Assembly: GCA_965648905.1 (NCBI GenBank)
Contig: CBFGIT010000011.1
Coordinates: forward strand, 1 to 64,000
Length of the DNA stretch: 64,000 nt
Source of the DNA: a candidate division WOR-3 bacterium
GTDB taxonomy: Bacteria > Hydrothermota > Tepidihabitantia > Tepidihabitantales > Tepidihabitantaceae
Reading direction: 5' to 3'
Shown here: positions 18,001-24,000 of the stretch, piece after piece
How positions within the stretch are numbered: the first letter of the stretch is position 1
How the letters are laid out: each line of letters begins with the position of its first letter
Program-made: the position numbers

Positions 18001-21000
18001 TGGCTCAGGGCCTCGAACTGGTCGCGCGGATGGTCCATCACCAGCGCCTGCTGCCCGCGGTGGTCGAGTTCATCGAGCACCGGGGCATTCAGGCCTGCAA
18101 CGCAGTGCTCGGCAGTGAGCTGCCATTCCCTGACGCCGCGGTCCAGGTGCTCATCGAACTCGACGGCAACGACCGCGAGTCCGTCCTGGCCGACTGCATT
18201 GCGGTCGGCGAGGCGGCCATCGGCCTGGGCGCACGCGAGCCACTCGTGGCCGACAATCCTACCGACCAGACCCGGCTCTGGAAAGCACGACGTGAACTGC
18301 ACGAAGTCCTGAAGCAGTACTATGCCGGGCTTGCCACCGAAGACGTGGTCGTGCCCCTCGCGCGAGTCCCGGATCTTGTGCTCTGGCTTGCAGGCCTGGA
18401 GCAGAAACACGGCGTGCCGATTGTTCCCTGGGGCCACATCGGCGACGGCAACATCCACGTCGGCATGTGCCGCGAGGCGTGTGTTGACCCGGCAACCTGG
18501 CCGGACCGGAAGCGTGCGGTTGTCTCAGACCTGGCCGACTACGTCATTCGCGTCGGCGGTCAGATTTCCGCCGAGCACGGCATCGGCTCGACCAAGAAGT
18601 GGCTGATGCCCAGGGCGGTCGGCCCGGCCGAGCTTGAGGTCATGGCACGACTCAAGCGCACCCTGGACCCGACTTCGATCCTCAACCCCGGGAAGATACT
18701 GCCTGCTCCGGCAACGCAGGCCTGACCGTGCGTCCGCGGGCGAGCCGCCGGATTTGACCGGCACCGAAGTCAGGTCATACTTCACCGTGCATTTCCTGCT
18801 GCTCAAGGTCGTCGCTGCGGTCGGCATGGGTGTCACACTCAAGCAGGCTGACACGAAGGGTATCGACCGTCTGCCGTTGATTCGCATCAACTATGCGGTC
18901 GCGGCCGTGCTCGCATTTCTGGCCGTGGTCGCAACCGGCGCACCGAGCATCTCCCGGCCCACGGCAATACTTGCGGTCGTCACCGGCGGGCTGTTCGTTG
19001 CCGGCCTGCTCTGCTGGACCCGAGCGATGCAGGCCGCCGGACTTGCGCTCTCGGTTGTGGTGATGCGCACCGCGATTGTCATCCCGCTCCTTGCCTCAGC
19101 TATTATCTGGCAGGAGCGACCCGGCCCGGTGCAGCTCACCGGCGCGGGCCTGGCATTGCTGGCGCTGGTGCTGGTGCTGTGGGATACCGCGCGACCGGCT
19201 GACGACAGTGACAGTGCTGCTGTACCTGGTGGCACACCGGCCAACCGACCATTCCATCTCTTGGGCAAGGCGTTCTGGCTTGCGGCGCTCTTTCTCGTTG
19301 ACGGGCTGGTGATGATTCCGGCCCAGGTCTTTCGCAAAGAACTGCCCCAGGCCGAGAATCTGCCGTTCCAGACCGTCATCTTCGTCTCGGCCTTCTTCGT
19401 TACCACCCTGCTCTACTACCTAGGCAGACCGCGTGTGACGCCAGGTTCGCTGCGACTTGGTGCACTCCTCGGCGCTGCCAACCTCGGCAACTACCTGTTC
19501 CTGGTGATGGCGCTTGCCTCCCTGCCTGGTGTCGTGGTCTTCCCGGTGATGGCTGCGGGCGAGGTCGGACTGGCCGCGCTGGCCGGCACACTCATCTGGC
19601 ACGAACGGGTCAGGCCCAGAGCATGGGCCGGCATCGCCCTGACGGTCATCGCGCTCATCCTGGTCCAGCTCGGCGCGTAGCCGACCGCCCTCAGTTCTCC
19701 GACATCCTGCCTCCGGCCTTCTGCCCGGCCTACTTCGTCTTCTTCGGCTGGGGTCGGACCGCAGGCTTGGCTGCTGCCCGGGGCAGCGGTTCGGGCGCGG
19801 GATGCTTCGCGGGCTCGCGCAGCATGCGCTTCAGTCGGCGCATCACCTTGGGTGCGTGTTTGGGATTGGCACTCGCCCACGCCTTGACGTCTTCATCGTC
19901 GAGCACAATCCGGCCGACAAACGCATCCGCCTGGATTGCCCGGTTGAACTCCTCGAGCGCCTGGTCAATGAGTCCCTGGTCAAGACGCACGACCGCGGCG
20001 AGCAGTCGGGCTGCGCCCCGGGCCTTGGGCCCGAGTTCCGGCAGCGCCTCAATCTGGGTTGCGTCATCGAGCGCCTCGTCAAACCGACCGAGCCTCAGGT
20101 TGGCGACCGCCCGATTGTGCCTGACCCGGAACCGAAGCCGCACATCAACATCATCCCGCTTCTGGGTGGCGTCGAGCCAGCGCGAGTAAGCGGCAACTGC
20201 TGCGGCGTAGTCGCGCAGGGCAAAGGCATCATCACCCGCTCTCAGGCTGTCAAGCGCCTGGACATAGTCAAGGGTCTTGCCCGCCCGGGCCAGGCAGGTC
20301 TCGGCCTGGCCGCGCACCGCGGCCACCGCCTTCAGGCCTTCGGCCACTTCGCCGGAGTGGGTATCGAGGTTCGCGAGCTCCCGGTTCAGCTTCGCGGCCT
20401 TGCCGTCAAGCTCGTCGAGGCGCTGCCGCGCGACAACGAGGTCGTTCTCAAGCCGGCTGATGTCGGCCTCGGTCGGGCCGGCATGAGGAGCGTTGCGCAG
20501 GGCGGCGATTTCAGCCCGGGCCTGGGCCAGTGCCTGCTCGTTCTCGGTCGTCTTGCGCTTGGCCCGCAGCAGTTCGTCGCTCAGGTCATTGAACCGCTTG
20601 TCCCAGACCGCGCGGACGTTCTCAATCTCGGACAGGCGCGAACCATAGACCCAGATCCGCCAGGCGGCGACGAGCACCGCCAGAATCAGCACGACGATGA
20701 CAACCAGGAACCACCGGGACAGGTTCCGGTTGGTGATGTCAAGCGCCTTGAGTGCCGCATCGTAGCCGGGAAACTCGGTCGGCTGAGCGCTGGCTGCGGC
20801 GACCAGGGTCAGAACGAGAATTGCCAGAGTAGTCTTTTGCACGTTGCCTCTTTTCAGGCTGTGCCATTATTGCCTGATTCCGGCCCGAGTCAAGAAAGAA
20901 CCCACCCGGACATGTCCGGGTGGGGTAAGAAAGGAGACTCCGGCTAGCGGCCGATGACGACTTTCTCCGGCCTTGACACGGTCCCCGGACAGACGAAGTA

Positions 21001-24000
21001 GACGCCCGGGGCCAGGCGTGATACGTCGTTTGCGCCGGGCGCAAGCGCCATCACCTGCCGACCCTCGGCCGTGATGAGCGAAGCATGCTGAGTCATGAAC
21101 GAGGCCGGCAGCCGCAGCGCGCCGCGGACAATCGTCGGCTCGGACCGGCGGCCTAAGGCCTGTGGGCAGGCGCGTTCCTCAACCGCGGTGACCGGCGAGC
21201 CGCGGAACAGCTCGACCAGGCCGTCGAACGCGCTGATGAGGAAATCCGGTGTGCCGTCGTTGTTCCAGTCTCCGAACCCGCAGCGCGAGCCGTAGTAGCT
21301 GCCCGATGCCCGGGTCGGAATGCCGTCGACAGTCTTAAGGGTCTCTTCCGCGGCCAGAACCGGGTCAGCATTTGTCCCGATGTTGCGGTAGAACCGCACA
21401 TATCCGTCGTTCGCGCCGCAGATGAGGTCATGCACTCCGTCCTGGTCCAGGTCAAACACATACGGGTTGACCCGGTACAGGTAGATGGGCTGACCATCGG
21501 CAACGACGTTCGTGAAATCCTGAAACATCGGCCAGGTGTCGCTCGTCTGGTTCGGGTAGAACCGGATGTAGCCGGTCTCGGTTCCAAGCAGCAGGTCCTT
21601 CATGCCGTCGCCGTTCCAGTCCGCGACCGTGGGCTGGCTGTTGCTGCCGACGTCGAGCACGGTCGAGTCCATCAACTTGTACTGGTAGTATGCAGTCAGC
21701 TCATCACCCGAGCGGATGAAGACATTGAAGTACCCCTCCCGGTCGCCCGAGACGATGTCCCATTCTCCGTCGGAGTTCCAGTCCACAACCTGTGGACAAG
21801 ATCCGACGCATCAACCTGATGGCAGGGTTATCTGCGAGCCGCTGGCGTAGAGGTATTCGAACCCGTTGAACACCGGTGCTGAGTCCGGCCCGCGATTGGG
21901 GTAGAACCTGATGTAGCCGCCGGTGAACTGGCCGCACACCAGGTCCTTGGCACCGTCTAAGTTCCAGTCGAACATCACCGGTGCACCGTACCAGGTGACG
22001 TCGATGGGCACACCGGCATCACAGATGGTATCCGGGCCGGTGAACCGCGGCGTCTCCGCGGCAAGTGGCAGGACCGCGGCAAGCACAAGCAGTACTAAGA
22101 AGCGCACAGTATCTCCTTTCGTTCGCTCCGCTGCCAGAGATGTTACTGCCGAACCAGCCCCGTTGTCAAGGTTGGAGAGAGGACGAAGGAAAGGAGCGGA
22201 GGCGTGGAGCGCGCGGGGCGCGCCAGTCAAAGGTCAAGTTGCAAAGAGCGAGGGTCAAAGGCCAAATCGCCGGGCAGTCCGGCATCTTGACTTCTGCAAT
22301 CTGCCTTCTGACCTGGCGCCGCAGGCGCTCCACAGCCTCGGCCACGACAGCGTGATACGCCCAGGTCTGCGCGTGTCAGGAAGTTCCTGAAAGTCCAAGG
22401 GTAGAGTCTTGGCGCCGACAGGACCGGCTTGTGCCCGCACAGTGCCAGGCCCAAAGGCTCCTGTCAGCGCCGCAGAAATCCGCAGCAGTTCACGCGGTCT
22501 GCGTAGTCAGAATCGCCGCCGCTGCGCAGCGCGTGGTTGCTGCCCAACATGCGGTCAGAACACCGTCTGCCCAATTGCCTTTCCACCAGCAGGCTCTCCG
22601 CCCAGGGAAGTACGGCTATACGGTTGGATACTATCGGTCGTACTATCTCCGAATCTACTGCCGGACGTAATGGCAGTAGTAGCTGCCGTACTCCCCTGGG
22701 GCATGCCCCCGGGTCTACCCGCCCATGGCCCGGGGCTAGCCCCATGGTTACTACCTTGGCAATAGTCAGGTGGTCTGTAAGCGGTACGCCCTGGTGGTGA
22801 TAGTGCCCGTTTACTTCGTGTATGCCCGCTTGGTCTAGCGCCGCACAGCCTGAGGAGTTACGGCGCGCGTCTAGGATTGGTGGCTTTGCCGGACGCTTGG
22901 CCTTGCACTGGGTGAATCGCGCTGCTATACTCTTTGTGGCTGCTTCGGTTGTGTGTGCGTGGCGTGCGCGCCGCGCAAGCGGTGCGCGTCCGCTTTCAAC
23001 CGAACCCGAAGCCGCTGGACCGCGGGAGCAGCAGAAAGGACAGAACAATGCCCGGAAGAGTCAGAGACAACATCGACCGTCAGTTCAAGTACACGGCCAA
23101 GACCAAGCCGGAACGGATAAAGCAGACCAGCGATGACGTCCGCGAGTATGCTCTGGCCCGGCATCAGGCGCGTCAGACCGAGCTTGCGGGCTTTGAAGTC
23201 CAGGCCAAGGAGGCAATCGACAACTCCGGTATCCCCTCGGCCCTGTACGTCAGCTACCTCAACTACTGCTCGCCAAGTGGAAGGTACGCGGCCTCGACGA
23301 GGACGTAATGAGGTTCCTCCGCTTCGGGCTGATAAACGTGAAGTAGCCCCACGCACGGCAAACATTCAGGTCGAGATCCGGGATCGGGGATTGCGGTGTC
23401 AGGGAACCGGAGACAGAGAGTTCCCGGGCGCGCCGGTCAGTCCAGCGCGACCTTGACCACTCTTGGTTCCAGGCCTGCCGGCAGCAGCACGAAGTAGACC
23501 CCGGGCGGAAGGTGGCGGACGTCGTTCGGGCCGGGCGCGAGCACCATCACTTTGCGGCCCGCAGCGTCGAGCAGAGCTGGTCTGGGGACACAATCCCAAA
23601 CGTCGGACGTTTGGGTGATGTCCCTTGTCAGCCAGAGCACGCCGCGGACAATGGACGCATTCGTCATTCGGACTTCGGCCTTGGTCCTTTCCGCGATGCC
23701 CGTGCTCGGGCTGAAGCTCAAGTCGTCCCAGAAGTCATGGCCGCCGCGGCCTTCGAGCCAGAGACAAAGCCGGGCAAACTTTGTGTTGGCCGGCGCTTGT
23801 GCGATGCCGGTGGTCAGGTAGCGCCAGCCTGCACTGTCTGTGGCCAGCACGCCTGACGCGGCACTGCCCAGCACGTTGTACGCTGAGTCGTGCCACTGTA
23901 TCAGGAGCTTTGCCCGGTTGTTCCTGCCGTCGTTCTTGTACGACCAGCCCGAGAACTCATAGCTTTCGCCGGGCAGTACCAGCACGTCCTGAAACAGCTT

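Follow-up and report, generated by a model that had tools for sequence, protein, structure and literature searches.

In SelB-dependent recoding as it is known from E. coli fdhF, and as it also occurs in the selD of the genome studied here, an in-frame UGA is followed by a stem-loop within the coding region that carries a G in its small apical loop. A neighbouring pair of Cys and Sec is found in mammalian thioredoxin reductase, whose C-terminal Gly-Cys-Sec-Gly redox centre is a Gly-flanked vicinal pair able to form a selenenylsulfide. The propellers of CRTAC1, integrin alpha and the BBSome have seven blades made of FG-GAP type repeats (PF13517/PF01839) with DxDxDG Ca-type loops, and none of them contains Sec. 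For the bacterial hairpin (bSECIS) the published consensus is an apical loop of 3-9 nt on an upper stem of 4-16 bp, with a G among the two leading nucleotides of the loop, a distance of 16-37 nt from the UGA and a minimum free energy of -7.5 kcal/mol or lower (PMC13188914, Fig. 2 legend). Adjacent Cys and Sec residues are catalogued in the CopZ-family (2Fe-2S)-binding GxUC protein, HgcA, SaoL, SaoC, MbdU and KCU-star (PMC13188914, Table 1).

On the minus strand of the window, the 64,000-nucleotide stretch of DNA that was analyzed, a GTG start at 22107 opens a frame of 387 codons which is closed by TAG at 20944-20946 (20944..22107), and the TGA of codon 99 (21811..21813) is the sole in-frame stop within it. 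The survey's finding had placed Sec at this codon in the context LPSG-U-CVGSC; the TGA and its context were confirmed from the sequence, with Cys100 following directly. All other features given below for this gene are likewise on the minus strand. A Shine-Dalgarno sequence AGGAG (22113..22117) was read 5 nt upstream of the GTG, and a promoter-like site TTGACA-18 nt-TAACAT (22140..22169), assigned by consensus match only, has 10 of 12 consensus positions; two such sites were seen in the region where shuffles gave an expectation of 0.2. A terminator-like hairpin lies 20 nt after the stop (20901..20924); G-C accounts for 8 of its 10 pairs, and TTCTTTCTTG comes next. As read from the sequence, the gene appears to be one monocistronic unit with a predicted precursor of 387 residues. 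Public annotation cuts it in two at the internal UGA: gene callers start a truncated 280-aa product (P0002) at an internal GTG (21784..21786), and all 120 of the 120 database relatives listed are fragments of 269-309 aa which begin after the TGA.

Conservation of the in-frame TGA, reported by the survey for 8 of 8 FG-GAP orthologs, proved to be far stronger. A search over 272 genomes of the phylum (E<=1e-35) returned 93 homologous matches in 58 genomes, at 36-100% identity and from at least 28 genera, and the TGA was kept in 93/93 of these (92 with one TGA, 1 with two); since the orthologs are mutually related, such counts overstate the independent support. The homologs align over the whole length of the frame, and neither TAA nor TAG was seen at the Sec site among those examined. 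In 29/29 extracted orthologs the motif at the TGA was G-U-C-x-G[SA], and a hydrophobic, signal-peptide-like N-terminus was located 94-103 residues upstream of U.

A bSECIS-like element (21768..21808) follows the UGA after a 13-nt spacer, as GUCCACA-GGU-UGUGGAC nested in a longer stem. The 7-bp upper stem pairs 21791-21797 with 21781-21787, and the 3-nt apical loop GGU (21788-21790), with G at position 1 and then G, is 20 nt after the UGA. The predicted minimum free energy is -24.5 kcal/mol, and the hairpin agrees with the published bSECIS description on 4 of 4 counts (PMC13188914). It is similar to the hairpins after the UGA of the genome's own selD and of a second candidate gene on contig C8, and the survey's description of hairpins with G/U in the loop was upheld. 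Several observations favour selection on the RNA structure. In 22 of 29 orthologs the native 45 nt surpassed at least 95% of synonymous recodings in stability (median z -2.4), the difference not being significant in the remaining 7/29. The codons of Pro105 (CCA) and Val108 (GTG) were each invariant in 26/26 sequences, the pair that closes the stem is G-C instead of A-U in 5 sequences, and in three divergent orthologs, with the peptide AIAVCDW versus SPQVVDW, other bases form a 7-bp stem displaced by 1 nt around the same G-U. On the other side, covariation measures on the alignment were mixed: RNAalifold on the 29 sequences gave only a 4-pair hairpin at -0.09 kcal/mol, further pair types (12 observed vs 13.9) were below shuffles, being reached in 497/500, pairs changed on both sides were equalled in 38/500 shuffles, and the dip in codon entropy after the UGA was unexceptional (9/102 windows as low).

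The genome encodes tRNA-Sec(tca), SelA and SelB together with two selD genes, each with one TGA of its own, so that the whole Sec machinery is present in the same genome. SelA was found in 52/58 genomes carrying the FG-GAP family, vs 122/272 overall in the phylum. No SelA match was obtained in 6/58, one of which (G058) is 76% complete, and SelB and/or tRNA-Sec were present in 5/5 of the SelA-less carriers tested. No match came from the 15 genomes that make up four SelA-less families in the same class, and from these sequences the Sec family appears to occur only in lineages that have the Sec trait.

The Pfam FG-GAP_3 match (PF13517) of the survey was reproduced on the read-through protein at 1.8e-18, with 67.3 bits against a gathering cut-off of 26.9. 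Residues 1-18 (VRFLVLLVLAAVLPLAAE, 22054..22107) form a hydrophobic, signal-peptide-like segment, and the propeller region, assigned by the PF13517 match, the AF2 model and Foldseek, comprises residues ~20-305 (21193..22050) and holds five loops of the DxDxDGxxD type (residues 47-55, 109-117, 163-171, 219-227 and 280-288). The model has a pLDDT of 87 and is confident across the UGA junction, with blocks of 91-97 for residues 81-120. Foldseek matched CRTAC1, BBSome and integrin alpha propellers (9etn_A at E 4e-8), with low TM-scores of 0.35-0.42 because five repeats are present here vs seven blades in those proteins. The match above the cut-off and the propeller fold together place the protein among FG-GAP/VCBS propellers.

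The C-terminal tail, residues ~322-387 (20947..21144), is a β-sandwich with strands at residues 325-385 in the model. It had been called T9SS-like, a description that holds for the tails of orthologs and not for its own sequence: no Pfam family matched the window tail at E<=1, it is absent from the genome's 111 PF18962 matches and is not assigned to the T9SS type A sorting domain, while the tail of the ortholog L018 matches PF18962 (Por_Secre_tail) at 1.2e-11. In relatives, many large proteins carry tails 45-66% identical to the window tail, which is a lineage-specific variant of a sorting tail. The T9SS translocon is represented by SprA (TIGR04189, 456 bits over its pieces) at C10:6295-11712. 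Because no T9SS domain is recognised in the tail, the export route is one that we infer.

We consider the window gene very probably a genuine selenoprotein gene for an exported propeller with a Sec-Cys pair. By the established bacterial mechanism, the ribosome would pause at UGA99, SelB with Sec-tRNA(Sec) would bind the GGU-loop hairpin, Sec would be inserted at residue 99 and the full-length protein would then be exported. The precursor would consist of a signal peptide, five FG-GAP repeats with a Ca-type DxDxDG loop each, and the β-sandwich tail. In contrast to the known recoding systems, the host protein here is an exported FG-GAP propeller and not a cytoplasmic redox enzyme, and the hairpin sequence is specific to the family.

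Were the TGA a true stop, the locus would be a recent pseudogene, or else two genes, one for the N-terminal 98 residues and the other for a protein of 280 residues that starts at GTG 21786. The public annotations found, which call only the 269-309 aa downstream product, would agree with this, as would the ordinary use of TGA as a stop, the most frequent one in the genome (ending 938/2034 long ORFs). We give this reading hardly any credence, however, because a pseudogene or fortuitous TGA would not persist across homologs, and here it persists in every one of them down to 36% identity, and the sequence on either side of it is conserved in a single frame. A protein made from the downstream part alone would moreover have neither signal peptide nor blade 1, its GTG is situated within the 3' arm of the hairpin with no AGGAG-like sequence before it, and the fold model is continuous across the junction. 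In other systems, read-through of a stop can be stimulated by structured RNA that follows it, and with the inserted residue predicted from sequence, the hairpin might here promote reading of the UGA by a near-cognate tRNA (Trp, Cys or Arg), or some other recoding might take place; the family-carrying genomes in which SelA was not matched would fit this as well. It is nonetheless very unlikely, given a hairpin which agrees with the SelB-type bSECIS model on every count, including the apical-loop G and the spacing, and which is like those after the UGA of selD and of the C8 gene, given a family confined to Sec-trait lineages in which the SelA-less genomes tested have SelB or tRNA-Sec, and given Cys in the same column of 12 relatives, as is expected for a Sec site.

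These relatives belong to a large sister family, which forms the other side of the branch in the tree (support 99). Its members (P0249, P0227, P0259 and some 115 others) are FG-GAP proteins of ~340-390 aa, and most of them carry the label Planctomycetota. They are about 30-36% identical along the entire propeller and have the same loop insertion in blade 2 with the same spacing, but differ in having no TGA and in their sorting signal, with a PEP-CTERM-like [VIL]PEP motif among the final 45 residues in 95/119. When Cys homologs at the Sec site were looked for in this family, the domain alignments gave Cys in 12/129, where Cys-Cys stands in place of Sec-Cys, and Gly in 98/129, while the Cys100 column was Cys in 117/129. 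The classical Sec/Cys correspondence thus appears to hold for a minority of TGA-less relatives only, which is atypical, and the residue conserved across both families is the neighbouring Cys. The Sec family may have arisen from a Cys-only ancestor with Gly or Cys at the neighbouring position, which we suggest with low confidence.

From the alignment and the strand order of the model, Sec99 and the invariant Cys100 would lie in a four-residue insertion in the loop by which the chain enters blade 2 at its innermost strand; the equivalent loop of integrin-type propellers would be close to the central axis, on the upper face that is turned to the ligand. In contrast to thioredoxin reductase, the order of the pair is reversed (U-C-x-G), it is situated in an internal propeller loop rather than in a flexible C-terminus, and the flavin domain and partner dithiol are absent. 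With low confidence, drawing on motif position and analogy, we propose that the pair may form a vicinal selenenylsulfide, or may bind a soft metal or a chalcogen, and might so confer redox or binding activity on the exported propeller outside the cytoplasm. That Sec is real and the pair not catalytic, serving as a ligand for soft metals or chalcogens (Cu, Hg, As, sulfide, selenide) or as a structural vicinal bridge that stiffens the loop, is possible and somewhat doubtful. The catalogued families in which Cys adjoins Sec are for the most part connected with metals, e.g. CopZ-family GxUC, HgcA, SaoL and MbdU (PMC13188914, Table 1), and neither a thioredoxin-like nor another reductant partner recurred beside the gene among the 39/66 flanking ORFs scanned, where the only recurrent neighbour was a SurA-like isomerase (7 loci). 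Gly is also tolerated in the Sec column of the sister family, which means that the neighbouring Cys has some use by itself. On the other hand, Sec is retained without exception in the 93 matches, which is more typical of catalysis than of a structural bridge that Cys could provide, and no metal-binding domain in the protein (Pfam) or metal-transport neighbour (same 39/66 ORFs) was seen.

The survey had stated that its three genes belong to no reported selenoprotein family, and this was upheld. None of the 119 families in Table 1 of a 2026 review is an FG-GAP, VCBS or propeller family (PMC13188914), and the window protein belongs to none of them. No NCBIfam match was obtained for the window, C16 or C8 protein, the window protein giving nothing below E 0.008 and that one match far under its cut-off. 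The catalogued families with Sec adjoining Cys, as in the window family, have unrelated folds and domains, and their NCBIfam models do not match the window protein. An exported FG-GAP propeller selenoprotein is thus a kind missing from current catalogues.

Two further genes outside the window had been described, like the window gene, as single frames interrupted only by TGA with a Cys beside or near the Sec, and in all three relatives keep the TGA at the same site and the Cys is in place (UC, CU and CGGU). For the C8 family, alignment of four paralogs without a TGA showed W, N, V or T at the Sec site, and Cys in none of them. Start candidates of the C8 gene are GTG 33684, TTG 33726 and GTG 33759. 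Its context is VPYCGG-U-GDGE, and the TGA, which had been seen in 3 of 4 homologs, was kept in 13 matches at 41-100% identity. For the C16 gene (C16:1693-2964, plus strand; RNHC-U-TKGD) the TGA was kept in 9/9 matches covering the site, as had been found before. Hairpins with G/U in the loop follow the UGA of both of these genes too. On sequence grounds the selenoprotein reading of all three genes is supported, because the TGA is conserved, the hairpins are present, the Sec machinery is complete and TGA is otherwise the commonest stop.

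The minus-strand frame at 20944-22107, read from the sequence as 387 codons from a GTG at 22107 to a TAG at 20944-20946, bore out the survey's finding of a single frame broken by one TGA in the context LPSG-U-CVGSC (U, selenocysteine, Sec). The TGA is codon 99 (21811-21813, minus strand), the single interruption of the frame, and is followed directly by Cys100. A Shine-Dalgarno sequence (AGGAG) precedes the start codon by 5 nt, a promoter-like site matching the consensus (TTGACA-18-TAACAT, 22140-22169) is found on the strand of the gene, and a GC-rich, terminator-like hairpin of 10 bp with a T-rich tail (20901-20924) lies 20 nt past the stop; with this layout the gene looks like a monocistronic unit. 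The product predicted by gene callers has 280 residues and begins at an internal GTG (21786) which has no Shine-Dalgarno sequence and sits within the hairpin that follows the UGA. The read-through protein matched Pfam FG-GAP_3 (1.8e-18) and contained five loops of the DxDxDGxxD type. A crude scan of the window for further in-frame TGAs returned off-frame noise only, and an Rfam scan of 20900-22300 gave only chance-level matches (best E 0.36).

The genome (3.01 Mb in 60 contigs, 99.6% complete) encodes tRNA-Sec(tca), SelA, SelB and two selD genes with one in-frame TGA each (C4:87631-88554 and C8:88040-88942, on contigs C4 and C8), the second of which directly adjoins selB at approximately C8:89016. 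Genome-wide reassignment of TGA was rejected because this codon terminates 938 of 2034 long ORFs (TAG 888, TAA 208), and UGA is recoded in the way usual for bacteria. SelA was found in 122 of 272 genomes of the phylum; of the 58 genomes bearing the FG-GAP family of the window gene, 52 had it. The six family-bearing genomes with no SelA match are MAGs of 74-92% completeness. Five of these were checked (all but G058) and each had a SelB domain and/or tRNA-Sec, the SelB winged-helix domain being present in four and tRNA-Sec above the Rfam threshold in three. No member of the FG-GAP family was found in four SelA-less families of the same class (15 genomes). All these counts are confounded by relatedness.

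Retention of the TGA in relatives, as claimed earlier, was upheld across the 272 genomes of the phylum, where all 93 matches at E<=1e-35 carried an in-frame TGA (one in 92 matches, two in the other). These matches, with identities of 36-100%, came from 58 genomes that all belong to one class, and some genomes had up to four paralogs. In a set of 60 relatives the TGA was present in every match spanning the N-terminal part of the propeller, and TGA-less matches were confined to the C-terminal tail. When 29 orthologs were extracted (a partial one, L035, was dropped), all had the TGA within G-U-C-x-G[SA] and a hydrophobic, signal-like N-terminus 94-103 residues upstream of it. Close or tandem paralogs, each keeping the TGA, were observed at G204:C38:1620-2558 and 3131-4066 and at G019:C50:8913-10076 and 14471-15427 (genomes G204 and G019). 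Among the database matches listed, all 120 relatives were fragments of 269-309 aa which begin past the TGA and carry names such as 'VCBS repeat-containing' or 'FG-GAP-like repeat-containing protein [candidate division WOR-3 bacterium]', indicating that public annotation systematically cuts this family short.

Following the UGA there is a 13-nt spacer and then the hairpin GUCCACA-GGU-UGUGGAC, nested in a longer stem. A May 2026 selenoprotein review (PMC13188914, Fig. 2 legend) describes bacterial Sec-insertion hairpins (bSECIS) as having a loop of 3-9 nt on an upper stem of 4-16 bp, a G in the first two loop positions, a spacing of 16-37 nt and an MFE of -7.5 kcal/mol or lower. The window hairpin, with a 3-nt loop, a 7-bp stem, loop G then G, a spacing of 20 nt and an MFE of -24.5 kcal/mol, agrees with all four criteria, and it is similar to the hairpins 3' of the UGA in selD and in the C8 gene, a further putative selenoprotein gene of this genome. 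Comparison of the orthologs argues for selection on the hairpin over and above that on the encoded peptide. For 22 of the 29 orthologs, at least 95% of synonymous recodings folded less stably than the native 45 nt (median z -2.4). Pro105 was CCA and Val108 was GTG in 26/26 sequences, and the closing A-U pair was changed to G-C in five. Three divergent orthologs, with the peptide AIAVCDW versus SPQVVDW, had a different perfect 7-bp stem (AAUCGCA/UGCGAUU) offset by one base around the same invariant G-U. RNAalifold did not recover a consensus hairpin, likely because in three sequences it is one base out of register. Two of five covariation measures were not above shuffles, and the dip in synonymous variation was unremarkable, as 9 of 102 windows were equally low.

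A search of 1.84 billion representatives returned 11,357 FG-GAP/VCBS proteins. The generic FG-GAP/VCBS giants were rejected as comparators for the site as they usually do not have the four-residue loop insertion which holds U-C (75 of 167 domain alignments had a gap at the Sec column), and they are uninformative on the site. The insertion was found in a sister family of TGA-less FG-GAP proteins (693 clusters at E<=1e-20), with spacing that aligned without gaps. Members are approximately 340-390 aa, the few with a source name are labelled Planctomycetota or Sedimentisphaerales, and 95 of 119 have a PEP-CTERM-like [VIL]PEP motif within the last 45 residues. Columns were read in 129 domain alignments from 118 proteins. 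Cys at the Sec column, which the survey had not looked for, does occur (12/129, as G-C-C-[LM]-G), but the residue is Gly in 98/129. The Cys100 column held Cys in 117/129, and in 24/129 a C-x-x-C began at this conserved Cys. A quick maximum-likelihood tree (147 rows, leaving out L035 and sister-family rows with no Cys at the Cys100 column) separated the 29 Sec forms from the rest by a branch with support of 99, and the Cys-Cys forms were dispersed at several places in the non-Sec clade. The alignments point to the Cys as the ancestral feature, its neighbour being either Gly or Cys in the sister family and Sec in 29/29 WOR-3-type members whose site was read. The large sister family (P0249, P0227, P0259, P0271-P0386), with five FG-GAP repeats, PEP-CTERM tails and an invariant Cys in the blade-2 loop that at times forms C-C or C-x-x-C, appears to be uncharacterised.

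AlphaFold2 modelling from a 26-row alignment (pLDDT 87, pTM 0.75, confidence >90 across the UGA junction) gave five four-stranded repeats and a C-terminal beta-sandwich. The best Foldseek matches were CRTAC1, BBSome propellers and integrin alpha subunits, with TM-scores of 0.35-0.42, low values being expected as the window propeller is smaller. Judged from the strand order of the model, U99-C100 would lie in the loop leading into the innermost strand of blade 2; integrin-type propellers have the corresponding loop on the upper face.

The 'T9SS-like tail' assigned by the survey to the window gene had no Pfam match, although orthologs have a canonical tail, as in L018, which matched PF18962 (1.2e-11). 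The window tail (20947-21144) is a shorter variant, ...GRxVxxLxPGxNDVSxLxPGVYFV..., shared at 45-66% identity with many large proteins of the lineage and unrecognised by the Pfam Por_Secre_tail model; it may be an unmodelled sorting-domain subtype. A 620-residue ORF upstream (23437-25299, minus strand) ends in the same variant, and its last ~80 residues match tails in loci of relatives at 42-53% identity. As the genome has SprA and 111 Por_Secre_tail matches, and an ortholog but not the window protein has a recognised tail, we infer that export of the window protein by T9SS is plausible. Conservation of the gene 3' of the window gene was limited to its own genus and, in part, one further genus. 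The orthologous loci contained 66 flanking ORFs of 110 aa or more; in the 39 of them that were scanned, the only recurrent neighbours were PhoU-domain genes (3 loci) and an upstream SurA-like prolyl isomerase (7 loci: L010:82-1389, L011:89-1399, L012:2660-4078, L013:2643-3980, L019:80-1414, L021:61-1392 and L030:29-1390). The latter lies directly 5' on the same strand in several genera and is absent from this position in the window.

With low confidence, we propose that the vicinal Sec-Cys pair, on the exposed side of an exported propeller stabilised by Ca, would serve either as a redox centre forming a selenenylsulfide or as a site for soft ligands. The main functional rival is that the pair is a metal or chalcogen ligand; none of the 39 scanned flanking ORFs was a redox partner beside the FG-GAP gene. 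A broader reading, which we consider rather unlikely, is that this WOR-3 class has a whole set of exported, surface-located selenoproteins (the FG-GAP propeller, the propeller encoded by the C16 gene, the CxxU protein of the C8 gene and the CBM-like family), and that the Sec-Cys at the mouth of a small Ca-stabilised propeller is a catalytic centre acting outside the cell, for instance on polysulfide, sulfur, peroxide or metalloids, which evolved by a Gly/Cys-to-Sec change beside an ancestral catalytic Cys. Were this true, it would constitute an extracellular selenium-based redox toolkit without a described counterpart. Together the C16 and C8 genes, the CBM-like family and the window gene suggest that the lineage may use selenium outside the cytoplasm.

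FG-GAP, VCBS and propeller proteins were indeed absent from the reported families, as none was among the 119 families and subfamilies in Table 1 of PMC13188914, and there was no mention of them in the searched parts of deep-Sep and BSepDB (for the latter the main text, its list of 111 families lying outside the search). Literature searches combining selenoproteins or selenocysteine with FG-GAP, VCBS, WOR-3 or type IX secretion found nothing relevant, and NCBIfam had no model for the window protein. The novelty lies in the family itself, in its fold and location, and in the origin of Sec beside Cys. Most known selenoprotein families are thioredoxin-like, and the FG-GAP family extends their range to a beta-propeller that is exported or surface-located. 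Every family member seen in public annotation is truncated to a signal-less fragment, so that an exported protein is misreported in dozens of WOR-3 genomes. Sec beside a conserved Cys, at a position mostly Gly in relatives, is an unusual evolutionary route, and methods that seek only Sec/Cys pairs would tend to miss such sites.

The C16 gene (C16:1693-2964) encodes 423 aa with RNHC-U-TKGD, and the claimed retention of its TGA was seen in 9/9 matches covering the site; one further match begins past the site, at a contig end. A conserved hairpin, GGAGUG-CGUGU-CACUCC, lies 3' of the UGA. The protein proved to be without a family in both Pfam and NCBIfam, and its model (pLDDT 77) had a propeller fold whose closest match was the propeller domain of CylK (TMq 0.65). 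For the C8 gene, with the CxxU motif in VPYCGG-U-GDGE, candidate starts were GTG 33684, TTG 33726 and GTG 33759. Its TGA, likewise reported as kept, was present in 13 matches at 41-100% identity. Eleven remoter matches (33-37%) had no TGA, and in four of these, when aligned, the Sec column held W, N, V or T and the Cys column W. Just 3' of the C8 gene there is an ORF on the plus strand (C8:34564-35067, or L040:3565-4068 in locus numbering) which begins MSIDDPPNAGFEPKIVAFLCNWCSYAGADLAG. It has a TGA near its end, giving KESVG-U when read as Sec, and looks like a putative hydrogenase delta-subunit (MvhD/FlpD)-type protein, a catalogued selenoprotein family.
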